Positions 9,551 to 42,945 of a DNA stretch of 64,000 bases are shown one piece after another. The notes beneath the pieces are model-generated. The model was not told the origin of the DNA. It saw only the letters and a program-made list of their open reading frames with translations, and searched no databases. A program made the position numbers and the translations under genes. Each line of letters opens with the position of its first letter. The stretch's first letter is position 1. The stretch is from Candidatus Saccharimonadia bacterium (GTDB taxonomy: Bacteria; Patescibacteriota; Saccharimonadia; UBA4664), in the NCBI GenBank assembly GCA_041743505.1, contig JBGTMQ010000020.1, forward strand, positions 81,099 to 145,098, read 5' to 3'.

Positions 9551-9781
9551 ATGTCCAACACAAGGCATCTGTCCATTGAGTACCGCGGCCGGGAGGTCAC
9601 CAATCCGTACGCCCGCGCCGCCGGCACAGTGGGCATCTTGTTGGCCTGTGTCTGTCTGCCGTTTATTGCGGTCTTGCATCCTTTGATGCTCGTCCTCGGT
9701 CGCCGCGGATTCGTCACGCACGAGTACGACAGTGCCACCACCACGATCACGATTTCAGGGGCCGGCTTCAAGAAGGACTAA
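9551..9781 (+). CDS. small membrane protein (76 aa)
   Basis: AGGAG SD 7 nt upstream of ATG 9551. One TM helix GTVGILLACVCLPFIAVLHPLMLVLG. Directly downstream of the CPBP protease. Confidence 0.45.
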   Translation: MSNTRHLSIEYRGREVTNPYARAAGTVGILLACVCLPFIAVLHPLMLVLGRRGFVTHEYDSATTTITISGAGFKKD

Positions 9782-9806
9782 CCACCAGCAATGTCCCGCC
9801 CGACAG

Positions 9807-9842
9807 CTCTGGGTATCGCAAGATACTCAGAGCATTCTTTTT
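9807..9842 (+). terminator. rho-independent terminator (11-bp stem with G.U wobble, GCAA loop, T-tract)
   Basis: ctctgggtatc-gcaa-gatactcagag followed by cattctttttta. Confidence 0.7.
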
Positions 9843-10020
9843 TAGGCCCTAATACTTGCATTACTTACCACCGACACCATCCCCGGCCATAACTGCAAAA
9901 TTGAGATGGTGCTCGCACCCCTCGCCACCAATGGCCGGCTAGCCATGAAGATTCTGTTTCACCTAGTCCCGCCGCAACCCCAGGCAACCCAGCCTGGGGT
10001 TCTACTTTCTCTGCCAAGGG

Positions 10021-10120
10021 GACTGAACTGAGGGCAGTACACAATTTGTCAGCACCGAATAAAAGCTGCGCCAAGCCAATACATGAAAGACTCAAACACC
10101 TTACTGCCCTCAGTTCAGTA
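10021..10120 (+). repeat. E3: 100-bp paired-palindrome element (arms 10021-10039 and 10102-10120, core ctgcgCCAAGCCA 10066-10078)
   Basis: Left arm gactgaactgagggcagta and right arm tactgccctcagttcagta are perfect inverted repeats. Spacers are 26 and 23 nt. Lies upstream of pgk. Confidence 0.85.
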
Positions 10121-10215
10121 GGTAGTGCCACGGAATTGTCCTCAGGTGAGCGAGGCCCGGGACCAAACATCAGCCATTATACCCGCCCACATTAGAAGAA
10201 TTCCCAGATTTCGCC

Positions 10216-14395: not shown

Positions 14396-14953
14396 ATGAC
14401 AAGTTCTCTATCAGTCGAATCACAAGCAGTGATTCGAGGCGTACTAGCAGGCAAGATTGACCGGGACAAAATTCACACTTTGCCTGGCCGGAGATTGCGC
14501 GTCCAAGCCGCCGTCGCCCTCATGCTGGCTAACCGGCAGCAATACCTGGATGACGACAACCGCGTCAAAGGGGGCTTCGGCCAGCACCTACGAGACATCA
14601 CCGGTGAAAGCAAAGCTCTACCCCATACGCTGACTTCCACCAGCCGGGAAGCCAAACTGCATCGCGCTTTGCGGAAAAAGCCAGGTGCCAGCGGGCGTGG
14701 CAGCTGGGAAGTATATCTGACGCCTCCGCCCGAGCTCCTGTCACTCGTGGACAAACCCACAGCTCAGCCACCGGCAGTTCTCACTCAGCCCGAGGATCAG
14801 AAGCCTGGGCAAGATGAAAAGCGCCAATGGCTCCCGGCCGAAGACCCTCAGCACCGCGCGTATGTCATCGTCCAGGCGCTTCTTGTCGAAGGCAGCGACG
14901 TCCTGCATGACGTCCACCGCCGCCTGCGCGCTATCTGCGATCCTAACTATTAA
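14396..14953 (+). CDS. hypothetical protein
   Basis: GGAG 7 nt upstream of ATG 14396 (tool start GTG 14390). Followed by a hairpin terminator. Confidence 0.45.
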   Translation: MTSSLSVESQAVIRGVLAGKIDRDKIHTLPGRRLRVQAAVALMLANRQQYLDDDNRVKGGFGQHLRDITGESKALPHTLTSTSREAKLHRALRKKPGASGRGSWEVYLTPPPELLSLVDKPTAQPPAVLTQPEDQKPGQDEKRQWLPAEDPQHRAYVIVQALLVEGSDVLHDVHRRLRAICDPNY

Positions 14954-14967
14954 TCCACCACAAAATG

Positions 14968-15000
14968 CCCCGCTGCCGATCCTTGGCAGCGGGGTTCATG
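14968..15000 (+). terminator. rho-independent terminator (perfect 10-bp stem ccccgctgcc / ggcagcgggg)
   Basis: Stem-loop followed by ttcatgcttgtt. Confidence 0.6.
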
Positions 15001-15174
15001 CTTGTTGCATATGTACAATTATATGATGTTAATAACAATGTTCATTTCAAGCATACTGCTTGCACCACCTGATGATAGTCATCACGTCAGTGATTGGGAG
15101 TGGCTGGGGCCATTTTCTCATATATGCCAAGATCAACATTGTCGCGGGCTATGTACAAGCGTAAAGTGTAAACG

Positions 15175-15606
15175 ATGACGGTATCATTCGAACCCGACGA
15201 GCTCAAGAAATTGATCGAACTGGCTTATCTTGGCGAGTGGTTTATTAATGCTCATCACGACAACGACTTCCAGGACGACAAAGCCACGGCCGTCACGCAA
15301 CGGTTGCTGGCCAAAAGCAAATTACCCGGCATTGAGCGGGATGCTGAGACAGGCGAATATTACATGGCGGCCGAATGGACCGAGCGGCTGTATGACCAAT
15401 ACATCCTCGACTACGACGACCACGTCTTCTGGGATGAGCTCACTGAACGGCTAGCCCAGCGCGATTTAGCCCGCCAGCGGGGTGTGCACATAGATGAGGT
15501 TAACCGCGAGGACGACGTACTCGAGTTACGGCCACTGGAAGAGCGTTACCGGCGTGAACTCGAAGGCCGCGGGGTCGAACGCCTAGAGTTAGCCGATGAT
15601 TTTTAG
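15175..15606 (+). CDS. hypothetical acidic protein
   Basis: 143 aa ORF after an AT-rich promoter region. Confidence 0.5.
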   Translation: MTVSFEPDELKKLIELAYLGEWFINAHHDNDFQDDKATAVTQRLLAKSKLPGIERDAETGEYYMAAEWTERLYDQYILDYDDHVFWDELTERLAQRDLARQRGVHIDEVNREDDVLELRPLEERYRRELEGRGVERLELADDF

Positions 15607-16859: not shown

Positions 16860-19094
16860 TTGATTGTGCATCCCTTACTCTCAGATCTCAATGAACCCCA
16901 ACGCCTAGCCGCCGAAACTACCGACGGCCCGGTCCTCATTCTAGCCGGCGCCGGCTCGGGCAAAACCAAGGCCCTAACCCATCGCATCGCCTACCTGGTG
17001 GCCGAAAAACACGTCCGGCCGCTCAACATCCTGGCTGTCACCTTCACCAACAAAGCCGCCGGCGAAATGCGCGGCCGCGTCCTCTCACTCCTCGGCCTCG
17101 ACTCAACCAACCGCTCCTATTTCCCCTACATCGGCACCTTCCACTCTGTATCTCTGCGCCTACTCCGCCGCGAAGCCACCGGCATCGGCCTACCCTCTAA
17201 CTTCCTCATCTTTGATGCGGCCGACTCCCAGTCCGCGATCAAACGCGCTATGCGCCAAGCCAATATCGATGAAAAACAATTTACCCCCAACCTCATCCAT
17301 AACCTTATCTCCAGTGCCAAGAACGAACTGGTCGACGCCGCTCAATATGCCAAATTAGCCCAAGGTAAAGCCCAGGATGCGGCCGCCAAAGTCTACCCCG
17401 TTTACCAAGCCATTCTCAAGGACGCCGGCGCCCTCGACTTTGACGATCTCATCTTCCAAACCGTCCGCATGTTCCGCAAATACCCGGACATACTGGCCAA
17501 ATACCAGCAACAATTCGCCTACATCATGGTCGACGAGTACCAGGACACCAACCACGCCCAATACCAACTCACCAAACTCCTGGCCTCAGGCCATCGCAAC
17601 CTCTGCGTCGTGGGGGACGACTGGCAGAGTATTTATTCCTGGCGCGGCGCTAACTTCCAAAACATCCTCGATTTTGAGAAAGACTACCCCGAAGCTCAAA
17701 TCGTTAAATTAGAACAAAATTACCGCTCAACCCGCAACATCCTCGATGCCGCTCACGCCATCATCGCCAAAAACCGCGTCCGCTCCGACAAAAAGCTCTG
17801 GACCGAAGCGGCTGAAGGTATGGGCATCGGCACCGTCAATGTCTACAACGAAGTCCAAGAAGGGGAGTGGATTGTCCGCCAAATCCAGGAGCTAGCTGTC
17901 ACCGACAAACGCGAGCTCTACGATTTTGCCGTCCTCTACCGGACCAACGCCCAGTCCCGCTCTCTAGAAGAGGCTTTTTTGCGCTACAACCTGCCGTACA
18001 AAATTGTCGGCGGCACCCGGTTCTACGAGCGCCGCGAAATTAAGGACGCCCTGGCCTACCTGCGCTTCGTCTACCAACCCGACGATGTCGTTAGCTTCGG
18101 CCGCATCATCAACCTACCACCCCGGGGCCTCGGCGACGTCAGCTTGGCCCGGCTCGAACAATGGCAGCGCGCCCAAGGCCTCGGCCTCATGGCCGCCTTC
18201 CGCCGCGCAGGCGATGCTCCCGGCCTCCAAACCCGGGCCGTCAACGCCCTCAAACAATTCGCCCTGCTCATCGACGGCCTCCGCGCCGAAGCCACCAAAC
18301 TCCCAGCCGGCCCGCTCCTCGATCTCATCCTCAAACGCTCCGGCTACCTCCAATACCTTGATGACGGCTCCGTCACGGCCGCCGACCGCATCGAAAACGT
18401 CAAGGAGCTCCTCAGCGTGGCCGAAACCTACAACGAGCTCACCCTTGAAGGTTTTCTCGAAGAAATCGCCCTCATCTCCGACATCGACAACTACTCGCAA
18501 GAATCCAACGCCGTCACTCTCATGACCCTCCACGCCGCCAAAGGCCTGGAGTTCCCGGTGGTCTTCATCCCCGGCATGGAAGAAGGTATTTTCCCGCACT
18601 CCCGCTCCCTGTTCGACGGTGACCAAATGGAAGAAGAGCGCCGCCTCTGCTACGTCGGCATGACCCGGGCCAAAGAGCGCCTGTTCCTCATTTATGCCAA
18701 CTCACGCCTGCTCTACGGTGGCACTAACCACAACCCACCCTCGCGCTTCATCACCGAAATTCCGCCCGGCCTGCAATCCGAAGGCAGCGAGTGGGGTACG
18801 GCCGCCCGGGCCGGCCGCTACGGCGGGGGAGCAGCGCCCCATGGCGCCGGCGCCGGCAGCTGGAATGTACCCACTATGCCCGCCGCCGACCTGGCTGCCA
18901 CCGCCCGCGAAGCCGACCGCCATCGCGAAACCATGCTTGGCCTTGACCTCAAACCCGGCGACCGCATCGAGCACACCAAGTTCGGTGAAGGCATCGTCTC
19001 CGACATTAACGGCGACGAAGTCACGGCCGCTTTCACCGGCGTTGGCGCCAAACGCCTATCTCTCTCCTTCGCCCCCATCCGCAAACTTGATTAG
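16860..19094 (+). CDS. uvrD: ATP-dependent DNA helicase UvrD/PcrA family
   Basis: Walker A AGAGSGKT plus helicase motifs I-VI across the full length; 744 aa. Non-ATG start (TTG 16860 or GTG 16866). Confidence 0.9.
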   Translation: MIVHPLLSDLNEPQRLAAETTDGPVLILAGAGSGKTKALTHRIAYLVAEKHVRPLNILAVTFTNKAAGEMRGRVLSLLGLDSTNRSYFPYIGTFHSVSLRLLRREATGIGLPSNFLIFDAADSQSAIKRAMRQANIDEKQFTPNLIHNLISSAKNELVDAAQYAKLAQGKAQDAAAKVYPVYQAILKDAGALDFDDLIFQTVRMFRKYPDILAKYQQQFAYIMVDEYQDTNHAQYQLTKLLASGHRNLCVVGDDWQSIYSWRGANFQNILDFEKDYPEAQIVKLEQNYRSTRNILDAAHAIIAKNRVRSDKKLWTEAAEGMGIGTVNVYNEVQEGEWIVRQIQELAVTDKRELYDFAVLYRTNAQSRSLEEAFLRYNLPYKIVGGTRFYERREIKDALAYLRFVYQPDDVVSFGRIINLPPRGLGDVSLARLEQWQRAQGLGLMAAFRRAGDAPGLQTRAVNALKQFALLIDGLRAEATKLPAGPLLDLILKRSGYLQYLDDGSVTAADRIENVKELLSVAETYNELTLEGFLEEIALISDIDNYSQESNAVTLMTLHAAKGLEFPVVFIPGMEEGIFPHSRSLFDGDQMEEERRLCYVGMTRAKERLFLIYANSRLLYGGTNHNPPSRFITEIPPGLQSEGSEWGTAARAGRYGGGAAPHGAGAGSWNVPTMPAADLAATAREADRHRETMLGLDLKPGDRIEHTKFGEGIVSDINGDEVTAAFTGVGAKRLSLSFAPIRKLD
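19073..19092 (+). repeat. 20-bp exact direct repeat CCCCATCCGCAAACTTGATT (copy 1, in-frame 3' end of uvrD)
   Basis: Identical 20-mer at 22775-22794, where it forms the 3' end of the C39-like peptidase gene. Both genes end with the peptide PIRKLD. Confidence 0.8.
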
Positions 19095-21264: not shown

Positions 21265-21317
21265 CCTGTGTAAGTCAAGGTGTGGTGAGCGAGTCCAGCC
21301 TTCCAACAACTGTCACT

Positions 21318-21797
21318 ATGAACAATACCGTCTCAGTAAAAAAACTAGCAAATGGACTTACCATTGTAAGCCCCAAAACTCATCCCCACGTTGAGTCAAT
21401 CTACCTTGAACTGGTTGTCAGGGTTGGCGCACGAAATGATTCAGATGAGTTTTTTGGCTTGGCCCATTTCGTTGAGCATGTGGTAGCGGAAATCGCCGAA
21501 GCTAGCATTCGGCGTCATGAATGGATCAATGACTATATGCTGGACACCTTTGATGCCGTGATCGATCAGGAGAAGACAACCTATTATGTCGGGGTAGCAA
21601 AAAATGATTCAGAGCGAGCCCTCCAGCTGGTCCTATCGGTTCTGCAATCTCCCGTTGTCACGCCAGAAATTATAGAGCGGAACAAAGAAATCGTAATAGA
21701 AGAATTACTCGAAGACCTTGACAGTGATACAACTCAAGCCACCCGGTACTTCGCATCTCAATATCACAAGGACAATACCCTGGGGAGCTACTATTAA
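21318..21797 (+). CDS. M16 (pitrilysin/insulinase) peptidase N-terminal domain only; truncated, possible pseudogene
   Basis: HFVEH (HxxEH zinc motif) and the KKLANGLTIV start are typical of M16. The ORF stops after about 159 aa, whereas M16 enzymes are about 420 aa. No continuation in other frames. Confidence 0.5.
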   Translation: MNNTVSVKKLANGLTIVSPKTHPHVESIYLELVVRVGARNDSDEFFGLAHFVEHVVAEIAEASIRRHEWINDYMLDTFDAVIDQEKTTYYVGVAKNDSERALQLVLSVLQSPVVTPEIIERNKEIVIEELLEDLDSDTTQATRYFASQYHKDNTLGSYY

Positions 21798-22025: not shown

Positions 22026-22796
22026 ATGACTTCTCGGTCTGATACACTAAAGTTCATGCAGCCAATCGAATACCAAATCAAGCCCATCAAGCAAAACGCC
22101 AGTGAATGTATGCAAACCGCTGCCACGCAGGTCATTTCCCACTATGACCCATCCATAACCGTCCAAAGAGTTATCGAAGAAGTACCAGTTTATGTTGAAA
22201 ATGGCAACAAAATTGGCACCTCTCAAGGGCATATGGCCGCCTACTTTGCGCGGGCGGGTTACAAAACAACCATGTATATTTTTGATGTCGAGTTGTTTGA
22301 CCGGAGCTGGGTAGACCTAAATCCTCATGAAGTTCTAGCCGGCTTACGGGAGCGTCAGAAGTATATTCCAGCTAATTCATGGCTAGCCAAATACCATCAT
22401 ATCCTCGTCGATGGTTTTGAATTATATGTAAAAGAAGGTGGCAATTTCGCCTTCCCGCAGCTAAGCGCGAAATTATTACGAGATTTACTCGACAGCGGCC
22501 CGTACCTCATCCTATTGAGCTCAACCTACCTTAACCAGGCAGCAAAACAACGCTACAATCAAGAGTCCGACACGTTTGTAGCTGACCCCATTCAGGGACG
22601 TTCGCTTACCCATGCCGTAACCTGTGCGGGCTACAAGGACGGCCAGTTTCTTATCGTCGATCCAGACCCACCTCGAGACACTAGTCCACACCGGTGGATA
22701 GCACAAGAACACCTCATCGCCTCAATTATGGTTGCCCAAACAGAATCAGATAATTACTTGATCAAAATAGACAACCCCATCCGCAAACTTGATTGA
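22026..22796 (+). CDS. C39-like / papain-fold cysteine peptidase domain protein
   Basis: QNASECMQTAATQVISHY (Cys box) and THAVTCAGYKDGQFLIVDP (His box) match the Peptidase_C39_2-like pattern. Ends with the repeated PIRKLD tail. Confidence 0.55.
   Translation: MTSRSDTLKFMQPIEYQIKPIKQNASECMQTAATQVISHYDPSITVQRVIEEVPVYVENGNKIGTSQGHMAAYFARAGYKTTMYIFDVELFDRSWVDLNPHEVLAGLRERQKYIPANSWLAKYHHILVDGFELYVKEGGNFAFPQLSAKLLRDLLDSGPYLILLSSTYLNQAAKQRYNQESDTFVADPIQGRSLTHAVTCAGYKDGQFLIVDPDPPRDTSPHRWIAQEHLIASIMVAQTESDNYLIKIDNPIRKLD
22775..22794 (+). repeat. 20-bp exact direct repeat CCCCATCCGCAAACTTGATT (copy 2)
   Basis: See copy 1 at 19073-19092. Confidence 0.8.
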
Positions 22797-22859
22797 CGGC
22801 TCGAACCATCGTATAGTACGTAATCCCAGGACAACGATCTCGTATCGGAGGCTCTTGCC

Positions 22860-23378
22860 ATGCGTCATTTCGTCTCTGGCAGCACCTATCGTGAGCTAAT
22901 GCGGCGACTCGGCCGGCTTCAGTCCGAACTTGCCAATCCCGACGGCAGCCGCATCGATCCCGTATTACTCATCCAGACTTTGGACGTCTTGTTATCGGGC
23001 AAAGTATTCGAGCTAACAATTACTCCTAAGCCGGTAGAGGATGAATTTCTTTACCTGAGCTTACCCCCGGAAGTCTTAACGACCGACATTCAGATGCTGG
23101 GGCTCAAAACCACTACTTACAATATCCTGAAGCGTCACGGCATTGATACTATTGAGGATTTGCTTGAGCGGTCGGCGGCCGATTTACTAGATATAGCCTA
23201 TTTCGGCCCCAGGCTGCTGGAGGAGCTAAACCGCGCGCTTGCTGTACATGGCTGGCATCTATCCCGTCACGACGATCCTGATCTGGCGCCGCCGTCAGGC
23301 GACGAGTGGATAACATTTAACCGCTATAGCGGCGCACCGCGACGCGTTCTCAAGAGTCGTCTGCACAGCCGGAAGTAA
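22860..23378 (+). CDS. RpoA alpha-CTD-like (HhH) domain protein, paralog 1
   Basis: LYLSLPPEVLTTDIQMLGLKTTTYNILKRHGIDTIEDLLERSAADLLDIAYFGPRLLEELNRAL aligns with the RNA polymerase alpha C-terminal domain pattern L.LS.R..N.L....I.T..DL......EL......G..S..E. Followed by GWHLSRH...APPSGDEW. CGGAGG SD upstream. Confidence 0.6.
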   Translation: MRHFVSGSTYRELMRRLGRLQSELANPDGSRIDPVLLIQTLDVLLSGKVFELTITPKPVEDEFLYLSLPPEVLTTDIQMLGLKTTTYNILKRHGIDTIEDLLERSAADLLDIAYFGPRLLEELNRALAVHGWHLSRHDDPDLAPPSGDEWITFNRYSGAPRRVLKSRLHSRK

Positions 23379-23398
23379 TTCACCGAGAGGACACGCCA

Positions 23399-24181
23399 GT
23401 GGCCCGCTATGCTACCGCTACACCCAACCAGCGGCTTGAAGCGAGGCGTCTATGGATCGAAATCTATGCCGAGCTAACTAACCCTCAGGGCAGCTCACTC
23501 GATCCTCAGATGGTTCTCGAGGCGCTACAGTCGATTCAGTCACTGATTCGTTCAAGCGATAACCATGAGTCAGCCAAGTATCTTGACAAGGCCGCAGCTG
23601 AGGTCGGGCCGCTCGAAAATCCTGACGATTTTCTTTACTTAACCCTGCCCCGCGAGGTTCTCGATCAACCAGTCAACACGCTTAAGCTAACGGAGCGGCC
23701 ACTCAATTGCTTGCACCGGGAGAATATTAGTACCGTCGATGACCTTCTGCAGCGTTCTGGGCCCGAGCTGTTAGAGATACGAAACTTTGGAGCAGTATCT
23801 TTAAGAGAAGTAACAACCCGGCTTGATGAACGGGGTTGGCACTTGTCCACCCATGGCCAGGGATTAGCTCCTCCGCCGGGTGACCAGTGGGTTAAGTACC
23901 AAGACTGGCTCTTTCTCCGCAGCCGTTTCATCCGGCTACCCGTTGATAAGATCCTCCGCTGGAATTCGCAGATCATCGCCTCGCTCAAGGAGCTTGGAAT
24001 TGTAACAGTCGGTCAGTTGGTCTCGTTGACGGACGTCGAAGTGCTACGGCTGCCCTGGGACGAAAAGCCGGCCACCTACGTCTGGAAGTTCGAGAAAATA
24101 ACCGGCTTCGATGCGCTCGAGATAATTAATGCGTCACTTCAAGACTGCGGCCTGTCCCTGACCCAAGAAACAGATCGGTAA
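23399..24181 (+). CDS. RpoA alpha-CTD-like domain protein, paralog 2 (two tandem HhH repeats)
   Basis: Same alpha-CTD-like motif and GWHLSTH...APPPGDQW as paralog 1, plus a second degenerate repeat. N-terminus is also paralogous to 22860. GTG start with GAGAGG SD. Confidence 0.6.
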   Translation: MARYATATPNQRLEARRLWIEIYAELTNPQGSSLDPQMVLEALQSIQSLIRSSDNHESAKYLDKAAAEVGPLENPDDFLYLTLPREVLDQPVNTLKLTERPLNCLHRENISTVDDLLQRSGPELLEIRNFGAVSLREVTTRLDERGWHLSTHGQGLAPPPGDQWVKYQDWLFLRSRFIRLPVDKILRWNSQIIASLKELGIVTVGQLVSLTDVEVLRLPWDEKPATYVWKFEKITGFDALEIINASLQDCGLSLTQETDR

Positions 24182-24186
24182 GTCTA

Positions 24187-24221
24187 AGGTCCGGGATTCT
24201 TTCCCGGACCTTATTTTTTTT
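24187..24221 (+). terminator. rho-independent terminator (aggtccggg-attcttt-cccggacct + T8)
   Basis: Perfect 9-bp stem and long T-tract, immediately after CDS 23399-24181. Confidence 0.8.
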
Positions 24222-24261
24222 GCCCCATTGGCAACCCCACCGCCAGTGGGGCTCTGTCATG
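24222..24261 (+). repeat. 40-bp hairpin element, copy 2
   Basis: See 21863-21902. Directly follows the terminator and lies 45 nt upstream of CDS 24306. Confidence 0.7.
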
Positions 24262-24305
24262 CCAAACTCAAATTAAGGCTCTGAGCATCTGTTATCATTA
24301 GCACA

Positions 24306-25157
24306 ATGACTAGAGAACAATCCCCTCAAGATCCCGGTGCCGAACAGGGTATGTTCGCCGACACCCGTAAAGCCACCGAGGAGCTTAGGCAGCTAGCAGA
24401 ACAAGGCATTGAAGCCAGGCGGCAGATAGGCCGCCTTACCGAGCAGGATGAGGTCGAAATCGCCACCCACACCAGGCAAGCCAGACAAGAGCTAACCGGG
24501 GAAAGTGAGCGCGACATAACATTAAAGTCTGCAACCGAGATTGCGGATAAGCTCAAAGAAAAAGATAGTGAGCTATCAGATAGCATTTATGAAGCCCTGG
24601 CCGAGACGTACGGTACGGCAGGCGATGTAGACCGCGGGCTTGCCACCATCGATCAGATCGAGGACCATGTTTCGCGCATCGAGGGCCTAATCCGCCTGGC
24701 CAAAGTCACCCGGTCGGACCGCGTCCACGATGAAATCAAGCACTCTGCGATGAACGAAGAGGGTAAAGCCGTTAACATTGATGTCGCGAAGAAGGTCTAT
24801 CTGAAGCTCCGGGTTGAAGAAAATCTCGCCGAAAGAGCTGACTCATTTGCAATGTTAGTTGGCGACGCCGCCGAGAAAGACCCCAACTACGCCGACGTCG
24901 CAAATGCCCGGGAAGTGGTAGAGCGAGAGACCAGGGTGCCACCTAAGGCACCCAGTACCAGTCTCGAAACGCAGGCTAGAATACGCGCCCAGGCTGCCCA
25001 CCGTACTACCGGCCTTGCAGCCCTCGACGAGTATCGCGCCCAGGCTGCCCGCCTCGGACCCGGCCGTGCCCAGGACTTGATGTTTACGGTCTATACGCTA
25101 GCCACCTTAGAGCTCGCCAGGAAGCAGCATCCCGAGACAGACAAGGCCGCAGCTTAA
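24306..25157 (+). CDS. hypothetical helical protein, tandem paralog A
   Basis: 283 aa. Shares TEEL.Q, HxRQAR.EL..ESE, YGT.GD, QI..HV.R.EGL.RL and a terminal AAA with the next CDS. The upstream tatcattag motif is also duplicated. Confidence 0.5.
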   Translation: MTREQSPQDPGAEQGMFADTRKATEELRQLAEQGIEARRQIGRLTEQDEVEIATHTRQARQELTGESERDITLKSATEIADKLKEKDSELSDSIYEALAETYGTAGDVDRGLATIDQIEDHVSRIEGLIRLAKVTRSDRVHDEIKHSAMNEEGKAVNIDVAKKVYLKLRVEENLAERADSFAMLVGDAAEKDPNYADVANAREVVERETRVPPKAPSTSLETQARIRAQAAHRTTGLAALDEYRAQAARLGPGRAQDLMFTVYTLATLELARKQHPETDKAAA

Positions 25158-25188
25158 TACCCTGTTCCAGTCTGCTATCATTAGTGGT

Positions 25189-26028
25189 ATGAGCGCAGAA
25201 CACGATATCGGCGGCCGCCACAGACAGGAAAATGATTTTGCTGGTGCCCGCGAAACTACCGAAGAACTAATGCGGCAGATTACTGAAGCCCACGAATTAG
25301 CTGCGCAAAACCAGCCTGCAGCCGACGAGATTGAACTAGCCGGTCACATAAGGCAGGCCCGAATGGAGTTAAATAACGAGAGCGAGGATACCGTCATCCT
25401 GCTATCGGCCAGCGAAACTGCCCGCGACCTTCATGACCGCAGGCTGGCTGATGATGTATATATGTCATTAGCCGGTGCCTATGGTACGCGCGGTGACATC
25501 GCCGGCGGCCTTGATGCCGTCAATCAAATTCAAGAACACGTCTTGCGGCTCGAAGGACTGGTCCGACTATCCGAAATCACGGGCGATGAGTCAGTTAAAC
25601 GTCAGCTCGCCGAAGCGGTCGAAAACAAGGCCGGTCACGCGGTTCACGTCGAGGTAGCCAGAGAAGTATTTTACAAATTTCGAATGGAGGACCGCGACCT
25701 CGATAAAGCCCAGAATTTTTCCAAGCTGGTCGCTAAATCCGCCGAAAATGCATCCAATTACCCTAAAGCTGTCGATACCAACGCGCGGGTAGCCTTGATG
25801 GCCATAATAGAACCCGACTCACCGCAACCCAGCCTTGATGCTCAGGCCAAAACCCTAGTTGACCAAGCAAATCTCACCGCCGACCCCCTCAAATATCTCG
25901 ATCAATACTGGAAACAAGCCCAAGATCAACCACCCGGCCCAGACCAGGAAAAGATGTTGGCAACCTACACCATAGCCACAGTCGAGTTAGCCAACGATGC
26001 GCTACGCCCAGATCAAGCTGCCGCCTAG
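25189..26028 (+). CDS. hypothetical helical protein, tandem paralog B
   Basis: 279 aa paralog of CDS 24306-25157. Confidence 0.5.
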   Translation: MSAEHDIGGRHRQENDFAGARETTEELMRQITEAHELAAQNQPAADEIELAGHIRQARMELNNESEDTVILLSASETARDLHDRRLADDVYMSLAGAYGTRGDIAGGLDAVNQIQEHVLRLEGLVRLSEITGDESVKRQLAEAVENKAGHAVHVEVAREVFYKFRMEDRDLDKAQNFSKLVAKSAENASNYPKAVDTNARVALMAIIEPDSPQPSLDAQAKTLVDQANLTADPLKYLDQYWKQAQDQPPGPDQEKMLATYTIATVELANDALRPDQAAA

Positions 26029-26030
26029 AA

Positions 26031-26059
26031 TTGACTCTAAAGCAAAGATATGCTATAAT
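26031..26059 (+). promoter_or_regulatory. sigma70-like promoter TTGACT-17-TATAAT
   Basis: Consensus-like promoter upstream of small CDS 26145. Confidence 0.5.
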
Positions 26060-26144
26060 TAATAATAGACGTATGCAGTGAGCACTGCTCCCCGCAGCAC
26101 GCACCAACTCGCATAATCCGCCAACCATCGAATGGACGGACACT

Positions 26145-26399
26145 ATGAACGAATACCTCGTCGTACGCGACGGCCAAGGTCGGCCTGTCTCGCGGGAGAT
26201 GCTCGTCGGTCTCGATCCATTTGGCAGTATCCTCGTGCTGACCAATCCGAAAGGCGGTCAAATCGATCTGCCCATAGAGACCGGGCCCAACTGGCAACAC
26301 GACTTCTCCGGCATTACCGGGGATCAAGGCGAACCATTTACGCTCGTCGAGCGCGCCGGCCAGTGGTTCTTGCAAACCCCCCTCCCGCTCAACTCCTGA
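26145..26399 (+). CDS. small hypothetical protein (84 aa)
   Basis: ORF downstream of a good promoter, weak SD. Confidence 0.4.
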   Translation: MNEYLVVRDGQGRPVSREMLVGLDPFGSILVLTNPKGGQIDLPIETGPNWQHDFSGITGDQGEPFTLVERAGQWFLQTPLPLNS

Positions 26400-26522
26400 G
26401 CAAACATCCGGTGCCGGCACTTCCGCTGGCGCCGGATTAATATTTTTGACTCAATGCAATTAAAAATACCCTGGGAACATGCGCGAATGGTTATCGCGTT
26501 GTTCCCAGGATAAACTAGTTAA

Positions 26523-28343
26523 CTAGAATCCGGGCAGATACCTGCCGAGGTGCGGATAGATATACGACCCCAGCTCCCGGTGGTATAGAGTGAGCATCTG
26601 CTCTTTGGTGATAGCATCAGTTCCAGCCCGCACAAACACCACCTGAAGCAGATAGTCACCGGTCAGCACGAGCGTCTTGGCTCCGGACAAGCTGCCTTCG
26701 GGATCGTCGGCGTCAAACTCCCACACCATATCGCCGGCGTCTCGTTGAGCAGGCGTGATGGGTTTGAAAGTAAGCGGCGGCGAGCCGAGCCCATAATGCC
26801 CGACGCACGGCTTTGGAAGATTATCCAAGTAGGCGCGTACGCCTTCCTTCCGGCCAGGGGCAAGCTTGATCAGATGCATGTAAATCTTGCCTATCATCTG
26901 ACCGGGCTCCTCCAAAACATAAACGCCACCGGCCAGCGGAACATCGCCGTATGCGTCCTGTGGCAAGAGAGGCCAATAATCTCCGCATTCATCGGGCAGC
27001 AACAAGTGCCTGCCGATAGTGACCATAGAGCGCTGATCCGCCTGGCCTGGCGGTGGAGGCGGTAGCATTGCCTGTTGCGAGGGCGCCACCTCTAGCACCG
27101 GGGCCGGACGGTGGCAAAAGCCTTCTCTAAGGCCCTTGAAACAAGTTAACATCCGGTTCGCTTGTGCTTGAAGCAGGTACGAATTCGGGTGCGCGCTCCA
27201 CTCCTGGCTCGTCGGGATGACCCGGTTAATCCAGCGCTTTCCGGGCTCCGGGCCGGCGACATCCTCACACATCGTGTGGTCGCCGTCTTGGAGAATATCA
27301 GAGGCATCAACGTATGTTGCACCAACCTCACGAACAGCTTCCTCGGTAATCTTATTTGCCTGATCGGCGATACTGTTGAGCCACTTCATCTTCTCCTTAC
27401 TGATTCTCGCAAGAACACCAAGGCCGCATTCCGCTGGCATCTTCTCGGTAGTCGGAAATGGCCGGGGATAGCCGGACACGAGCAATTGGCCACCCTCGGC
27501 CAGATTTGCCTGCACGGAGCGGTAGGTCGAAACCAGCCTTTTCCTGATATCCGAAGCCTTGTCTTCGATGAGCACATCCCGGTCGTCCGAGCAGTCGACC
27601 CAGAAGAAGTATGGCTTCAAATATCTCGAGTAAATATCTGTGACACAATCCTTGACGATATCAGCAAAACCAATATCGTTGCCGGTCATCGTGATTGTCA
27701 CCAGATTGGCCCGGCGGGTCGTGTCCAGCTTCTTGGGGTGGCCGGTCTTAGAATCGGACGCCCATTGCGGCGGGTTAGCCCGTTCTTCATGCTCACGCTT
27801 ATTGAACGGTCCCCAGGTCTCATCCCAGGATTGTTCGTCCTCAAAATGCTTAGAGGTAGCTCCACTGCATGCACGATGGTCCAAGGTCCAGGCCGGGTTC
27901 TCGGCTTCTAGCGCCTCCCATAGCTTAACCGGATAGGCATTGGCCGACCGGTGGCAGTGGTTGCCCTCGATAGCAGTACCGGTAACGAAATCCTGAAAGT
28001 TCGTACCGCAGCTGTCAGTGACATTATCCGGCGCCCCTTCCCCCGCAGCGAACGAGTCTCCGAGAGCCGCATACACTAGGGTATCCTGGTCGGAGCCAAG
28101 ATTCACGCCAGCTGGGTAGCCCCCGGGCCGCTCACGCGACCCATGTCTTCTCGGCGCCTCCCCAGTTAGATCTTCCAGACCTGGCACAGGTGGGCATACG
28201 CCCAAATGGACAGGACCGGTCGGCATGATCGGCCAGGGTGACCGGTCTGGTTCATCGGCGAAAGCAATTCCCGGGATAGCAAATAGCAAAATACCGGTCA
28301 AGAAAGTAACCAGCACCCTGCGAGCCGTACACAGACTCATCAA
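26523..28343 (-). CDS. secreted SGNH/GDSL-family hydrolase with C-terminal extension
   Basis: Signal peptide (LLFAIPGIAFA), block I GDSFAAGEG, and a later SAHPN (block V-like His). 606 aa. Confidence 0.65.
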   Translation of the reverse strand: MMSLCTARRVLVTFLTGILLFAIPGIAFADEPDRSPWPIMPTGPVHLGVCPPVPGLEDLTGEAPRRHGSRERPGGYPAGVNLGSDQDTLVYAALGDSFAAGEGAPDNVTDSCGTNFQDFVTGTAIEGNHCHRSANAYPVKLWEALEAENPAWTLDHRACSGATSKHFEDEQSWDETWGPFNKREHEERANPPQWASDSKTGHPKKLDTTRRANLVTITMTGNDIGFADIVKDCVTDIYSRYLKPYFFWVDCSDDRDVLIEDKASDIRKRLVSTYRSVQANLAEGGQLLVSGYPRPFPTTEKMPAECGLGVLARISKEKMKWLNSIADQANKITEEAVREVGATYVDASDILQDGDHTMCEDVAGPEPGKRWINRVIPTSQEWSAHPNSYLLQAQANRMLTCFKGLREGFCHRPAPVLEVAPSQQAMLPPPPPGQADQRSMVTIGRHLLLPDECGDYWPLLPQDAYGDVPLAGGVYVLEEPGQMIGKIYMHLIKLAPGRKEGVRAYLDNLPKPCVGHYGLGSPPLTFKPITPAQRDAGDMVWEFDADDPEGSLSGAKTLVLTGDYLLQVVFVRAGTDAITKEQMLTLYHRELGSYIYPHLGRYLPGF

Positions 28344-28588
28344 TATCTCCCCTCACACTCGCTGTGCAGATTCTCAATGAACAAACAAAGCTGGCCAGCA
28401 ACCGGTACAGCTTGCATACGACCTATGCTCGCTAACAAGCAAGGCATAAACCGATCACACTCTAACATAGTATTAACAAAATGTCAACCAAATAACCGGC
28501 AACTCCTTCATCTGTAAAACTTGATTAAGTCCAACGATGCTGGTATAAGAAACGCAGTTCATAGTCTGGTCCGATCGAGGGAGCCGTC

Positions 28589-29173
28589 ATGCCTAATGAT
28601 TTTCTCTTCCTGACGCTACCAACCGACGAGCTTGAACGCCCGCTCAAAACACTGGAACTGCCGACCCGAGCGTATCACTGCCTGATGCGCGAGGAAGATA
28701 TCAGCACCGTAGGGGATTTGCTGGCCTGCTCAGAGTCTGAGCTAATCGACATTCGCATCATGGGGTCTAGTTTGGTTGACCAAGTCAAGATCAAGCTGGC
28801 AAAGCGCGGCTGGCATCTGTCGCCTCACGACCAGAGCACCGAACCGCCGCCGGGGGATTCATGGGTCCAGGTGCCACATGGGCAATACCTAAACAAGCAG
28901 CGCCAGGTCCTCCAGAGCCGGGTGCGTAGAATATCGCTTGATCGCTACAGCTGCCCCTACCCCGGCTACCCTAACACCCCAGTGGATGCTATCCGCTCGG
29001 TCATTAACCTGTCGACGCTCGGTGATCTGGCCGCCCTTACCGAAGTTAAGGTCCGGGCGGCCGTCGAAGAGGCCACCCGTAAGCCTCACTTCGAGCAGTT
29101 CGACATCGCCAAGTCCGTAGACTGGATCAAGCAGAAATTGACCGAAGTCGGGCTGAAATTGGCCCAACCGTAA
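28589..29173 (+). CDS. RpoA alpha-CTD-like domain protein, paralog 3
   Basis: DFLFLTLPTDELERPLKTLELPTRAYHCLMREEDISTVGDLLACSESELIDIRIMGSSL plus GWHLSPH...EPPPGDSW. Second HhH-like repeat. GAGGGA SD. Confidence 0.6.
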   Translation: MPNDFLFLTLPTDELERPLKTLELPTRAYHCLMREEDISTVGDLLACSESELIDIRIMGSSLVDQVKIKLAKRGWHLSPHDQSTEPPPGDSWVQVPHGQYLNKQRQVLQSRVRRISLDRYSCPYPGYPNTPVDAIRSVINLSTLGDLAALTEVKVRAAVEEATRKPHFEQFDIAKSVDWIKQKLTEVGLKLAQP

Positions 29174-30587: not shown

Positions 30588-31826
30588 TTGTATTTAACGC
30601 GAGAGACTACGATTTTAAGCCACATAATAGGTCCGCTGGCCGCGACTTACCAGAAGCTGACTGCTCAACCCCGCAATTTCCTGGCCATCGGTATCCTCAT
30701 CACCATTGTATTTTTCGGACTATCGTCCGGCCATTTGCCACTCTCACCAACCGCTAGCGCCGATGCGCAGCGCCTAGTATCACTGTACGCTGATGGCCAG
30801 AAACGAGTCTTCGCTACCGAAGCCGGAACGGTTCGTGAGGCCCTGGACAACAGTAATGTTCAGCTGGCCAAGAACGATTTGGTCGAGCCAAGTCTTGAAA
30901 CGGAAATCCCGCAAGGTTTCTTCAACATTAATGTTTATCGCGCTCGGCCGGTGCTGGTGCAAGACGGGTACAAGTCACACTACATCACCAGCGCTTACCA
31001 AAGCCCCCGCCTGCTAGCTGAGGCCGCTGGCCTGCACATCTACCCGGAAGACGGCTACACCACAACCATGATCTCTGAATTTGTCGACAACGCCGCCGTC
31101 GGCATCAAAGTTGAAGTGAAGCGTGCCATGCCCTTGACCATACATGCCGATGGTACCGTTAAGTCCGTGCGCACTCAGTCCAAGACCGTCCGCGAGGCCT
31201 TGGACCAAAGCGGTGTGTCCCTTGGTCTCAAAGATACCGCCTCAGTACCAATGACAGATCCGGTGGTAGCTGGTATGAATGTTGCCATCACCAGGGTGAC
31301 GGATGTCGAAACCACCATCTCCACGCAGTTGCCACGTGGCCTGCAGACCGTCAATGACCCCAATGTGCTCAAGGGCGAGACCCACGTGCGGCAAGAAGGC
31401 TCAGATGGTGAGAAATCGGTCCTCTATCGCATCCACTACCGTGATGGAGTTGAAGTCAGCCGCGAGCAGTTACGCACTGTTAGCCAAACCGCTCCCGTGG
31501 ACCGGGTCGTCATGGTTGGCACCAAGGTCTTGTTTGCCGGTTCGGTTGAGCACTGGCGGCCGATGGTCATAGCCGCGGCCACGCAGTGGGGTCTTGATCC
31601 TAATATGATGATGCGGATAATGTCCTGTGAATCCAAAGGTAATGCCACTAGCGTCAGTCACTTTGTCGTCAACGGCCAGCACCCCACCGGCCTGTTCCAA
31701 TACCTGCCGTCAACCTGGCGCTCCAGCGGTGGCACTGACAGCAATATCCTCGATGGCGCTACTCAAATCCAAATCACCGCCAAAAAAATGGCCACCCAGG
31801 GCACCGGCGCTTGGCAGTGCAAGTAA
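30588..31826 (+). CDS. RpfB-like resuscitation-promoting factor (DUF348 repeats, G5 domain, transglycosylase-like domain)
   Basis: TVREALD repeats (DUF348), G5-like KGETHVRQEGSDGEKSVLYRIHYRDGVEV, and a C-terminal CESKGN...GLFQYLPSTW transglycosylase-like domain. The start is uncertain (TTG 30588, no ATG/GTG upstream of the TM segment). Confidence 0.7.
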   Translation: MYLTRETTILSHIIGPLAATYQKLTAQPRNFLAIGILITIVFFGLSSGHLPLSPTASADAQRLVSLYADGQKRVFATEAGTVREALDNSNVQLAKNDLVEPSLETEIPQGFFNINVYRARPVLVQDGYKSHYITSAYQSPRLLAEAAGLHIYPEDGYTTTMISEFVDNAAVGIKVEVKRAMPLTIHADGTVKSVRTQSKTVREALDQSGVSLGLKDTASVPMTDPVVAGMNVAITRVTDVETTISTQLPRGLQTVNDPNVLKGETHVRQEGSDGEKSVLYRIHYRDGVEVSREQLRTVSQTAPVDRVVMVGTKVLFAGSVEHWRPMVIAAATQWGLDPNMMMRIMSCESKGNATSVSHFVVNGQHPTGLFQYLPSTWRSSGGTDSNILDGATQIQITAKKMATQGTGAWQCK

Positions 31827-31865: not shown

Positions 31866-33035
31866 ATGAATTTATTAGACATAGGCATCATCCTGCTCGT
31901 GATGGCCGTGGCTGCCCGCGGGCTGCAGGCCGGTTTTTTGCGTCAAGCCGGATCGCTGGGCGGCTTTGGGGTAGGCTTGCTACTCGGCGCGGCCCTGGCC
32001 CCGTGGGCTGTGCAATGGGCTGTGACTGACTCGTCCAAGGCCATCCTGGCCATCGCGGTTGTATTCGGCACCGCCTTAGCACTCAGTGGAGTCGGAGAGT
32101 TAATCGGCGCCACGGCCGGTCACCACGCCCGCCGCAGCCGCCTCGGCCGCATCGATGAAGTGGCCGGCGCGGCCTTTGGCGTGGTTGTGGGGTTGGTGGT
32201 GGTCTGGCTGCTGGGCTCCTTGCTCATGCGCCTGCCGCTGCCCGGGGTCCAAGCGGGAATCCAGCGCTCAGTCGTCTTACGGGTCTTAGACCAAAACCTG
32301 CCGCCGGCCCCGGATGTTGTGGCGCGGTTCGGCCGGTTGGTGGCGCCAAATGGTTTCCCGTCAGTCTTTAGTGGCCTCGAACCGGCGCCGGCGCCTCCGG
32401 TCACCGGACCAAACGCCGCGGCCATAAACCAGGCGGCCGCGGCCGGCCGTGCTGCAACCGTCAAGATTGAGGGTTTCGGATGCGGCGGCGTTGTCGACGG
32501 GTCCGGTTTTGTGGCCGGCCCGGGGCTGGTGGCTACCAATGCGCATGTCGTGGCCGGCATCCGGAACCCCATCGTGGTGGATAGCAAGGGTTTGCACGCC
32601 GCCACCGTGGTTGCTTTTGACCCCAACCTCGACTTTGCGGTCTTGCGCACCACCAATCTGGCCGCCGACCCTTTGCCGCTTGATACCAGGCTGGCTCCGC
32701 GTGGTACCGTCGGGGCTGCTTTAGGCTATCCTGGCGGCGGCCGGTTTACTATTACGCCGGCGGCCGTACTCCAGAGTCAGACGGCCCTCGGACGCAACAT
32801 TTACGACCGCGGTCTCGTCAAGCGCGATATTTATGCCCTCCAAGCAGGTATTCGTCCCGGTAACTCAGGCGGCCCCTTGGTTACGCCGAATGGGGTTGTG
32901 ATCGGCATGATCTTCGCCCGCTCCATCGCCAACGACAACATCGGCTACGCCCTTACCTCAGCCGAACTGCTGCCGAAACTGACAGCCGCCGCCTCCCACG
33001 GCCCGGTCACCACGGGCGCCTGCGCCGCCGGTTAG
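31866..33035 (+). CDS. CvpA-family membrane domain fused to trypsin-like (S1) serine protease (MarP-like)
   Basis: N-terminal CvpA-like 4-TM domain. C-terminal GCGGVVDG...TNAHVV...DFAVLR...GNSGGPL catalytic triad context. AGGAAG SD. Confidence 0.75.
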   Translation: MNLLDIGIILLVMAVAARGLQAGFLRQAGSLGGFGVGLLLGAALAPWAVQWAVTDSSKAILAIAVVFGTALALSGVGELIGATAGHHARRSRLGRIDEVAGAAFGVVVGLVVVWLLGSLLMRLPLPGVQAGIQRSVVLRVLDQNLPPAPDVVARFGRLVAPNGFPSVFSGLEPAPAPPVTGPNAAAINQAAAAGRAATVKIEGFGCGGVVDGSGFVAGPGLVATNAHVVAGIRNPIVVDSKGLHAATVVAFDPNLDFAVLRTTNLAADPLPLDTRLAPRGTVGAALGYPGGGRFTITPAAVLQSQTALGRNIYDRGLVKRDIYALQAGIRPGNSGGPLVTPNGVVIGMIFARSIANDNIGYALTSAELLPKLTAAASHGPVTTGACAAG

Positions 33036-41389: not shown

Positions 41390-41983
41390 ATGATGAGGGT
41401 CCTCGCCGTTACAGGCATCTTGCTTGCGCTTTTAATGGCTGTTGTTATTGGTGGATTCTTTGGCCTCGGTCTTTATTTGTCGCCGCAAGACCCACTGGCC
41501 AAAGCCGATGCGATCGTGGCTATCTCCGGTGGGGAGACTGATGCCAGGACCGATGAAGCAGTGCGTCTGTATCGTGATGGTTGGGCTCGGCACATAATTT
41601 TCTCCGGTGCCGCCCTCGACCCCAACGGGCCGTCCAACGCCCGCGCCATGGCCAACCGCGCCGAGAGCCAGGGTATACCACCATCCGTCGTCTCGCTGGA
41701 TGAGATGTCCACGAATACGCGTGAAAATGCGGCTAATGTCACCAAAATCGTCAAGCACTTGGGCGATCACTCGATAATCCTCGTCACGTCCCCATATCAC
41801 CAGCGGCGCGCCGACATCGTATTCAAGCGCGCCCTTGGCCCAGGCTATTCCCTTATCAATCATTCTTCATACGATCAGAATTGGCGCCGGTCACATTGGT
41901 GGGCCACCACCTATAGCCGCGACCTGACTGTCTCGGAATCACAAAAGGTTGTATATGAACTCCTGAACGGACAGTCGCAATGA
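41390..41983 (+). CDS. DUF218 / YdcF-SanA-family protein
   Basis: AIVAISGG...RHIIFSGA...E..STNTRENA pattern typical of DUF218, with an N-terminal TM helix. Confidence 0.65.
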   Translation: MMRVLAVTGILLALLMAVVIGGFFGLGLYLSPQDPLAKADAIVAISGGETDARTDEAVRLYRDGWARHIIFSGAALDPNGPSNARAMANRAESQGIPPSVVSLDEMSTNTRENAANVTKIVKHLGDHSIILVTSPYHQRRADIVFKRALGPGYSLINHSSYDQNWRRSHWWATTYSRDLTVSESQKVVYELLNGQSQ

Positions 41984-42945
41984 TCCTCGTCGACATTGCC
42001 ATCTTGGCTGTTATCGCTATAGGAGGTTATAAAGGCATCCGGCGGGGAGTCATCCTGGTATCACTCGAATTCCTGAGCTTCGTGATCGCGACCGTCGTGG
42101 CCCTGGCTCTGTACCGTATGGCTGGACCCATAATAAAAGATTTTGCCGCCATTACATTACCATTAGCCAATCTCAGCGCCTTCCTCATCATCTGGACCGT
42201 TACCGAAGTACTTTGCGGCCTCATTATCCGTTACGGGCTTCTATCGCGCCTGCGAAACAAGCTGCAACCATCCTGGATAACCCGGACAGGCGGAGCCGTG
42301 TTAAATGGCCTAAAAATAACCACGCTAGTAGCCGTCGGGTTAATTTTGTTTGCCGGGCTGCCACTATCGGCCGAAATCAAACAGCCCGTCACCGACTCGT
42401 ATATCGGCCGGGCGTTTCTCGGCCTGGGCGGGCCGCTGCGACAATGGTTGGGCAATGGCTTGGGTGGTGACCTCGGTGAAGCCCTCAATGTCTTTACTGT
42501 TACCTCACCCCCCGACGGCGGCAAAAAAGTTGATCTTGGCTTTACCACAACCGAGGTCAAAGACAATCCCGCAGCGGAACAAACTATGCTGGAGCTGGCC
42601 AACCACGAGCGCAGCTCACGCGGCCTGCCGCCGTTAACCGTCAATGAGCCGGCCCGCCAAGCCGCCAGGGCCTACTCCACCCGCATGTTAGCCGAGGGCT
42701 ATTTTAGTCACAAAGATCCGGACGGCCATAGCCCGTTCGACCGGCTAAAAGCCGGCGGTGTTAAATTCCGCTCCGCCGGCGAAAATCTAGCTCTAGCGCC
42801 AACGGCCCAGTTGGCCCACCAGGGACTTATGAACTCACCGGGCCACCGGGCCAACATATTGTCAAAGAATTACCACAAGGTCGGCATCGGTGTCATCGAT
42901 GCGGGCCCGCACGGCCTGATGGTCACCCAAGAGTTTACGGACTAG
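41980..42945 (+). CDS. CvpA-family membrane domain fused to CAP/SCP/PR-1-like domain
   Basis: N-terminal CvpA-like 4-TM region. C-terminal GYFSHKDPDGHSPFDRL...GENLA...HRANIL CAP-domain motifs. ATGA overlap with the upstream gene. Confidence 0.65.
   Translation: MILVDIAILAVIAIGGYKGIRRGVILVSLEFLSFVIATVVALALYRMAGPIIKDFAAITLPLANLSAFLIIWTVTEVLCGLIIRYGLLSRLRNKLQPSWITRTGGAVLNGLKITTLVAVGLILFAGLPLSAEIKQPVTDSYIGRAFLGLGGPLRQWLGNGLGGDLGEALNVFTVTSPPDGGKKVDLGFTTTEVKDNPAAEQTMLELANHERSSRGLPPLTVNEPARQAARAYSTRMLAEGYFSHKDPDGHSPFDRLKAGGVKFRSAGENLALAPTAQLAHQGLMNSPGHRANILSKNYHKVGIGVIDAGPHGLMVTQEFTD

Follow-up and report, generated by a model that had tools for sequence, protein, structure and literature searches.

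The 64,000-nucleotide (nt) stretch analysed here (hereafter, the window), taken from contig JBGTMQ010000020.1 of a Candidatus Saccharimonadia bacterium (assembly GCA_041743505.1), carries three related genes whose products share the fold of the C-terminal domain of the RNA polymerase alpha subunit (alpha-CTD). The open reading frames (ORFs), whose coordinates were checked in the window and are exact, all lie on the (+) strand at positions 22860-23378 (paralog 1, P0003), 23399-24181 (paralog 2, P0001) and 28589-29173 (paralog 3, P0004). Paralog 2 (260 amino acids, aa) displays the full architecture: a three-helix N-terminus, an FLYLTLP motif, a first alpha-CTD (alpha-CTD1), a hairpin linker and a second alpha-CTD (alpha-CTD2). 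Paralog 1 (172 aa) consists of an N-terminal helical segment, FLYLSLP, alpha-CTD1, a GWHLSRH...PPSGDEW hairpin and LKSR, and is devoid of alpha-CTD2; paralog 3 (194 aa) lacks the N-terminal segment and runs from FLFLTLP through alpha-CTD1, GWHLSPH...PPPGDSW and LQSR to alpha-CTD2. The N-terminal segment is common to paralogs 1 and 2, and the C-terminal extension to paralogs 2 and 3. The three proteins are pairwise 36-39% identical over their full length and 45-49% identical in their core.

All three paralogs score above the curated gathering threshold (23.8 bits) of the Pfam family PF03118 (RNA_pol_A_CTD): paralog 1 with 40.2 bits (E 2.7e-10; residues 71-128, positions 23070-23243 (+)), paralog 2 with 73.6 bits (E 1.1e-20; residues 86-144, 23654-23830 (+)) and paralog 3 with 49.8 bits (E 2.8e-13; residues 13-71, 28625-28801 (+)). 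Matches to the NCBIfam RpoA equivalogs (TIGR02027 and NF0035xx) are confined to the last 60-80 model positions and reach 28-61 bits against cutoffs of 228-523, and the paralogs therefore have the alpha-CTD but nothing else of the alpha subunit: they are free-standing proteins with the alpha-CTD fold that lack the N-terminal dimerisation and assembly domain of RpoA. The AlphaFold2 model computed for paralog 2 from an alignment of 22 family sequences (mean predicted local distance difference test score, pLDDT, 89.3; predicted template modelling score, pTM, 0.72) places residues ~84-150 on the solved alpha-CTDs 1lb2, 1z3e, 3n4m and 8y5t with a root-mean-square deviation (rmsd) of 0.9-1.1 Å over ~65 residues and a target-normalised template modelling score (TMt) of 0.84-0.94 in Foldseek; the rmsd is ~1.0 Å to chains 8y5t_A2, 1lb2_E and 1z3e_B. 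The matched chains include structures solved with and without DNA, and the identity of domain 1 to solved alpha-CTDs is 33-49%. The alpha-CTD-like segment that the original prediction had assigned to each of the three coding sequences, and for which it had proposed a structural comparison with RpoA, is thus upheld by both profile and fold. RpoA chains were the sole matches of the family profile in the PDB, restricted to the first domain, and Foldseek found no PDB chain resembling the whole of paralog 2 (query-normalised score, TMq, at most 0.26). The NusA C-terminal acidic repeat model TIGR01954 is matched by paralog 1 alone, at 14 bits against a cutoff of 48.15.

A distinctive feature of the proteins is the signature GWHLS...PP(P/S)GDxW. 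The six-frame translation of the window contains it exactly three times, with one copy in each paralog: motif scans place it at 23250-23309 (+) in paralog 1, at 23834-23890 (+) in paralog 2 (GWHLSTH...PPPGDQW) and at 28808-28864 (+) in paralog 3. The DNA form of the motif was not met once in 100 shuffles. The motif had been described as directly following the domain; its presence in each ORF is borne out, but its first half lies inside the domain, since GWHLS aligns with the GLSLG sequence closing the alpha-CTD of RpoA and is hence a modified domain end rather than a separate element. The PPxGDxW half leads into a short beta-hairpin (residues 164-173 in the model of paralog 2), then LxSR. Across the family this linker, GWHLSxH-x5-8-PPxGDxW beta-hairpin followed by LxSR, is nearly invariant, and G161, D162 and W164 (paralog 2 numbering) are invariant in all 22 members. 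The same order of motifs (FLYLxLP, alpha-CTD1, G[WL]HLSxH, PPxGDxW, LxSR) was found in the three window proteins and in 19 others, in agreement with the proposal of a paralog family marked by a conserved motif.

The C-terminal extension of paralogs 2 and 3 had been described as a second, degenerate HhH (helix-hairpin-helix) repeat. Pfam finds two stretches in paralog 2, and hhalign aligns domain 2 (residues ~176-260, positions 23924-24178 (+), bearing an LPW motif) to domain 1 with a probability of 96.9% (E 1.7e-10), an insertion of ~14 residues replacing the second hairpin (G-x-K-S). Modelled alone, domain 2 (pLDDT 87.2, pTM 0.76) retrieved exclusively alpha-CTD chains from the PDB, with a probability of 1.00 and TMt of 0.87-0.89. 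The extension is a complete second alpha-CTD fold with an insertion, and the core of the family consists of two (HhH)2 domains of the RpoA alpha-CTD type. The N-terminal helical domain that paralogs 1 and 2 had been proposed to share is likewise seen in the alignment; in paralog 2 it is modelled as three helices, and the segment recurs in most other family members.

An exhaustive profile search of 1.84 billion representatives (E <= 1e-3) returned 19,320 matches. Architectures were taken from the match layout of the best 150 of these, a reading that is annotation-free and hence was not made hit by hit. Every one of the 150 is either a protein with multiple alpha-CTDs or a full-length relative of the window paralogs; ~20 proteins of 183-284 aa are matched end to end in a single stretch, and many long proteins contain 2-13 alpha-CTD matches. 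The family comprises ~22 sequence clusters with a common architecture (variable helical N-terminus, FLYLxLP, alpha-CTD1, aromatic/proline hairpin, LxSR, alpha-CTD2), and the alignment reveals the further family motifs GIxTVGQL, LPW and a final L...GLxL helix. Paralogs 2 and 3 possess the degenerate alpha-CTD2, as do 19 of the remaining 20 aligned members; paralog 1 is a truncated variant without it. The clusters examined are all singletons or pairs, and a word-index homolog search gave one or two relatives (e.g. P0002, 39% identity), as the family is too divergent and too rare for that index.

A hidden Markov model (HMM) of the family scores its members at 205-270 bits versus 65-78 bits for 80 genuine rpoA genes, so that the family is cleanly separable from RpoA; these 80 genes are the loci from a GTDB scan whose peptide pattern matched actinobacterial RpoA, and they are uninformative on the distribution of the family. 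In one contig of an actinobacterial metagenome-assembled genome (MAG), L031, two identical-scoring rpoA ORFs lie 5.3 kb apart (9203-10195 and 14502-15494), reflecting either a duplication or an assembly artefact. In source databases the members of the family are called 'hypothetical protein' or are mislabelled 'DNA-directed RNA polymerase alpha subunit'. What is known here is the domain, PF03118; what is new is the double alpha-CTD architecture with its motifs. The premise that stand-alone alpha-CTD-like proteins are uncommon did not survive, because metagenomes and phages contain many alpha-CTD proteins that are free-standing or multi-repeat, as attested by the 19,320 profile matches, the multi-repeat metagenome proteins and many small phage proteins; it is the present architecture that is rare.

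No link of the family with defence, phages or plasmids was found. A degenerate DNA pattern of the family motif had no match in 2.9 million viral contigs, tblastn against 50,697 phage records did not find the family, and the strict motif was not found in JGI metagenome contigs, where the single match to the DNA pattern was a chance one in an unrelated ORF. PADLOC and PHROGs, run on the three paralogs and their neighbours, returned nothing except the alpha-CTD-like segment of PglW itself. A prophage or phage origin was rejected, the phage records having yielded rpoA-like matches only, and so was a defence-island reading, for which neither the paralogs nor their neighbours gave PADLOC or PHROG support.

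The established contact surfaces of the E. coli alpha-CTD are the 265 determinant for DNA (R265, N268, C269, G296, K298 and S299), the 261 determinant for sigma and the 287 determinant for other proteins. Counted over the 22 family members in E. coli numbering, the DNA-contacting R265 is kept in 14/22 (T in paralog 1), N268 in 12/22 (H in paralog 3), C269 in 4/22 (I in paralog 1), G296 in 17/22 (with no window paralog differing), K298 as K or R in 9/22 (V in paralog 2, S in paralog 3) and S299 in 10/22 (L in paralogs 1 and 3). The sigma-contacting E261 is present in two of the 22 members (G in paralog 1, K in paralog 2), and position 287 is variable. A genuine actinobacterial RpoA retains all of the residues counted here. 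Since the DNA determinants are only partly kept and the family motifs are far better conserved, canonical UP-element recognition appears unlikely as the conserved function. A looser, HhH-type contact with DNA through R265 and G296 is plausible from the residues retained in most members, including paralogs 2 and 3, in which both equivalents are present.

The family proteins of the window are 32-46% identical to those of related contigs versus 56-81% for neighbouring housekeeping proteins, indicating that the family diverges much faster than its neighbours. A neighbour-joining (NJ) tree of the 103-column core of the family alignment is star-like and does not unite the three window copies in a clade; the nearest relative of paralog 1 in this analysis is P0011 (52%) and that of paralog 2 is P0002 (51%). 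This indicates old duplications, or else saturation of the sequences. Although the clustering of the genes had been taken as a sign of recent expansion, the 36-39% identity of the window paralogs and their failure to group in the tree point instead to anciently diverged copies. Additional divergent tandem copies stand beside family members in contigs L084, L087 and L091/L092, so that duplication has recurred in the family. The window has another three pairs of adjacent paralogs: small membrane-like proteins at 20468-20866/20878-21264 (30% identity), AMIN-like proteins at 33147-33824/33978-34742 (28%) and short ORFs at 36120-36494/36520-36792 (60%). Tandem duplication is thus a general habit of the region and is not restricted to the alpha-CTD genes.

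The three genes sit in a variable interval delimited on the left by the pcrA/uvrD-type helicase gene (16860-19094 (+); Pfam, and synteny in L001, L086, L088, L090, L094 and L095) and on the right by an rpfB-like gene encoding a DUF348-G5-transglycosylase protein (30588-31826 (+); Pfam and synteny). A family gene lies inside this pcrA...rpfB-like interval in nine contigs (the window, L001, L084, L086, L088, L090, L094, L095 and the contig of P0028), the minimal form being that of L086, which consists of pcrA, the family gene and the rpfB-like gene. The order in the window is PGK (10229), TIM (12533), PcrA (16860), the three paralogs, the rpfB-like gene (30588), a CvpA-trypsin fusion and two AMIN-like genes, followed by KsgA, MetRS, TatD, cysteine desulfurase and a CvpA-CAP fusion; in L094 it is PGK, TIM, ..., PcrA, one gene, P0093, ..., rpfB-like. 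P0093 is MDF2460843.1, from a MAG labelled Candidatus Saccharibacteria bacterium. PcrA of the window is 75-77% identical to its counterparts in L094 and L095, and the window TIM is 70% identical to that of L094; the PDB entries closest to the window TIM are ones that we take to be Clostridium, Thermotoga and Bacillus enzymes. An assignment to Actinomycetota, suggested by the rpfB-ksgA-metS-tatD synteny, was rejected on these TIM matches and on the origin of P0093 and its syntenic contig. Within a Saccharibacteria-related clade of high GC content (56-63%), the family gene is the only gene that is always present in this otherwise variable interval, and the family is chromosomal, rare and lineage-specific, being found in bacteria related to Candidatus Saccharibacteria (candidate phyla radiation (CPR)/Patescibacteria). 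It seems to be missing from the well-sampled oral lineages. An all-versus-all BLAST of the neighbourhoods found no conserved partner gene beyond pcrA, rpfB and housekeeping genes.

A promoter-like site (TTGATT-17-TATAGT, 22789-22817 (+)), predicted by consensus scan and sequence, precedes paralog 1, whose ATG has a GGAGG 7 nt upstream; the gap between paralogs 1 and 2 is 20 nt, and a terminator-like hairpin, comprising a 12-bp stem followed by T8, is predicted directly 3' of paralog 2 (24185-24213 or 24185-24223 (+)). Because of this succession of promoter-like site, short gap and terminator-like hairpin, paralogs 1 and 2 probably constitute one bicistronic unit. A 245-nt upstream region of its own and a GAGGGAG ribosome-binding site precede paralog 3, which is predicted to be a separate transcription unit, one gene 5' of the rpfB-like gene.

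Upstream of paralog 1 are a 171-aa ORF (21282-21797 (+)) that matches the N-terminal part of peptidase M16 (insulinase) only and looks truncated or fragmentary and, after it and directly 5' of paralog 1, a gene for a C39-like peptidase-domain protein (22026-22796). Between paralogs 2 and 3 are tandem genes (24306-25157 and 25189-26028 (+)) for proteins of 283 and 279 aa that are 38% mutually identical; neither gives a match in Pfam, NCBIfam, PADLOC or PHROG, and no related contig was found to contain them, so that they are specific to the interval of the window. They are followed by a minus-strand gene (26523-28343 (-)) for a GDSL-lipase-domain protein of 606 aa whose N-terminus has a hydrophobic segment; the gene is preceded by a strong promoter-like site (TTGACA-17-TAGAGT with TG, 28487-28459). 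It may be an insertion, since it interrupts the paralog cluster and is among the few genes on the minus strand (44089-46717 and 56825-57820 are further examples). In L090 (GCA_964405545.1), a 184-aa ORF with a weak Sigma70_r4 match (3877-4431) is situated between pcrA and the family gene; neither the window nor the other loci have a conserved counterpart. Beyond the interval, two fusions of a CvpA (Colicin_V) membrane domain, one to a MarP-like trypsin-like protease (31866-33035 (+)) and one to a CAP/SCP domain (41980-42945 (+)), are both conserved in the Saccharibacteria-type contigs L086, L095 and the contig of P0028. Over the whole window most of the longer ORFs are on the (+) strand, GC skew is persistently negative (cumulative -2.76 over 64 kb), about half of the ORFs tested have no Pfam domain, and no tRNA or Rfam family was detected.

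Among the possibilities raised by the original prediction, that of a DNA-binding family of unknown function is the most reasonable reading. In its specific form, to which we give a probability of roughly 0.35, the family would be a lineage-specific accessory factor that binds nucleic acids or associates with RNA polymerase, whose domain 1 serves DNA binding, whose domain 2 and N-terminus serve contacts with proteins, and whose paralog 1 acts as a modulator. The protein would be a small cytoplasmic accessory factor for transcription or chromatin; by-eye inspection of the family sequences, made without a predictor, revealed neither a signal peptide nor a membrane segment. In alpha-CTD1 the HhH hairpins, with the R265-equivalent minor-groove arginine and G296, would contact DNA in a largely sequence-non-specific or AT-preferring manner, and the rigid-looking linker would hold alpha-CTD2, which lacks the second hairpin, in place as another surface that probably contacts proteins. 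Self-association or association with a partner could be mediated by the N-terminal helices, and paralog 1, lacking both the arginine and alpha-CTD2 and putatively co-transcribed with paralog 2, may be a non-DNA-binding partner or modulator. Several observations weigh against this proposal. No window copy has the full DNA-contact set, which is conserved to ~40-65% across the family, and the best-conserved residues are those of the scaffold and of the family-specific motifs, above any canonical functional surface. Most members are acidic (pI 5-6.3), although charge is uninformative as a proxy for DNA binding because the E. coli alpha-CTD is itself acidic. Finally, no description of the architecture and its motifs was found in Pfam, NCBIfam, the PDB or the literature, nor experimental or literature support for any member.

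The relaxation of the DNA-contact residues on a preserved alpha-CTD fold is also what might be expected of a mimic or decoy, in which free domains would titrate or relay factors that dock on the alpha-CTD of RNA polymerase rather than bind DNA. Activators, Spx-like regulators, sigma region 4, NusA-type HhH repeats and phage proteins hijacking the alpha-CTD have been considered as targets. Fast evolution and repeated duplication would suit a surface whose protein contacts keep changing, and this idea can further draw on the weak local matches to an alpha-CTD-like segment inside the BREX (bacteriophage exclusion) kinase PglW, on the small alpha-CTD proteins encoded by phages and on the weak Sigma70_r4-like ORF two genes upstream of the family gene in L090. 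The known protein-contact determinants at positions 261 and 287 are not conserved, however; there are no defence genes nearby and no PADLOC or PHROG matches beyond the domain itself, and the Sigma70_r4 neighbour is missing from the other loci. The mimicry or competition for alpha-CTD contacts envisaged by the original prediction thus appears weakened on the sequence evidence, because the UP-element/DNA determinant is only partly kept and E261 is nearly absent, and we regard a decoy as unlikely. Less weight still is given to a role as a repair or replication accessory of the adjacent PcrA/UvrD helicase, for instance as a tether to DNA or to stalled RNA polymerase, akin to the tether-like roles played by (HhH)2 modules in UvrC, RuvA, LigA and ERCC1-XPF. 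The family gene lies directly 3' of pcrA on the same strand in L001 and L088 (gaps of 72-86 nt) and L086 (~520 nt), and every contig that extends far enough has pcrA to the left of the interval. Against this, one to six unrelated genes separate the two in the window, L090, L094 and L095, the family gene adjoins rpfB equally often (L086, the contig of P0028, L084), and paralogs 1 and 2 are flanked by a promoter-like site and a terminator-like hairpin of their own; co-orientation with pcrA carries little weight because nearly all genes in these genomes are on one strand. We consider this role improbable.

Cultivated Saccharibacteria live on Actinobacteria, and an alpha-CTD derived from, or tuned to, that of an actinobacterial host might act on host transcription. 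The top PDB sequence match of the family is the Streptomyces RpoA (72.1 bits, in a comparison set without Saccharibacteria RpoA), the core of P0002 is 61% identical to an actinobacterial-type RpoA C-terminal fragment, and fast evolution with paralogy is typical of host-interaction genes. The margin to the next PDB entries is just 2-3 bits, however (69.8 for 8i23, presumably a Firmicute (Clostridium) RNA polymerase, and 68.6-68.8 for mycobacterial RNA polymerase), the actinobacterial bias of the GTDB scan was made by its search pattern, and inspection of the sequences (by eye) and of the neighbourhoods showed neither a secretion signal nor a neighbouring secretion system; a host-directed mimic is accordingly the reading to which we attach the lowest probability. 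Taken more broadly, as either a CPR-specific, detachable extra pair of alpha-CTDs that would dock on RNA polymerase or on promoters of Saccharibacteria and stand in for activators missing from these reduced genomes, or a mimic of the host alpha-CTD in an epibiotic lifestyle, the idea is a long shot. Were it true, the fast divergence and repeated duplication would represent co-evolution with partners.

Saccharibacteria and other CPR bacteria have small genomes in which few transcription factors can be recognised, and for most of their lineage-specific genes no fold has been assigned. With its unambiguous fold, conserved position and sharp motif, the family described here is a tractable candidate for a CPR-specific factor associated with DNA or RNA polymerase. 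Its delineation also corrects database names, as the members labelled 'DNA-directed RNA polymerase alpha subunit' are not RpoA. If the family contacts partners of RNA polymerase or host factors, it would represent a new reuse of a polymerase regulatory domain; if it does no more than bind DNA generically, it would be an ordinary lineage-specific HhH protein.

Other proteins resemble the family in part. The similarity to BREX PglW is confined to a weak local match at positions 804-874 (13-17 bits); against the models of PglW and NF005841 (PRK07758, a 95-aa hypothetical protein) the paralogs score 11-20 bits versus cutoffs of 115 and 990 and, in contrast to PglW, a Ser/Thr kinase of ~1400 aa, they have neither a kinase domain nor BREX neighbours. 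Phage proteins annotated as 'RNA polymerase alpha subunit C-terminal' in BFVD (e.g. from uncultured Caudovirales, Rhodococcus phage Finch and Mycobacterium phage Mithril) are likewise free-standing alpha-CTD folds of 100-240 aa, but their similarity to the family is that of a single domain only (TMq at most 0.26). The C-terminal HhH domain of TfoX/Sxy (PF04994) has been placed in the HhH superfamily of the alpha-CTD, the DNA binding of TfoX-C itself being only predicted (bioRxiv 10.1101/284836). As a stand-alone transcription co-factor, TfoX/Sxy provides a functional precedent for a free HhH module at promoters; its architecture is different, and neither the TfoX_N nor the TfoX_C domain of Pfam matches the three window paralogs at E <= 1.

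The multi-repeat alpha-CTD proteins of metagenomes constitute an unstudied class that illustrates the wide reuse of the alpha-CTD outside RpoA: P0006 has 12 alpha-CTD stretches in 1031 aa and, by eye, a signal-like N-terminus, P0022 has three in 271 aa, and P0041 combines TPR with two. They share with the present family the non-RpoA use of the alpha-CTD as a repeated module, but their repeats are canonical and RpoA-like, their linkers are simple, they come from other lineages, and they have neither the degenerate second domain nor the FLYLxLP helix nor a GWHLSxH...PPxGDxW hairpin. RpoA itself shares with the family the fold and clear sequence homology of domain 1, the fold of domain 2 and the terminal GLSLG that corresponds to GWHLS. 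Unlike RpoA, the family has no alpha N-terminal domain, carries two alpha-CTD folds per chain locked by a conserved hairpin, keeps the DNA and sigma determinants only in part, and is marked by the FLYLxLP, PPxGDxW and LxSR motifs, which are absent from RpoA.

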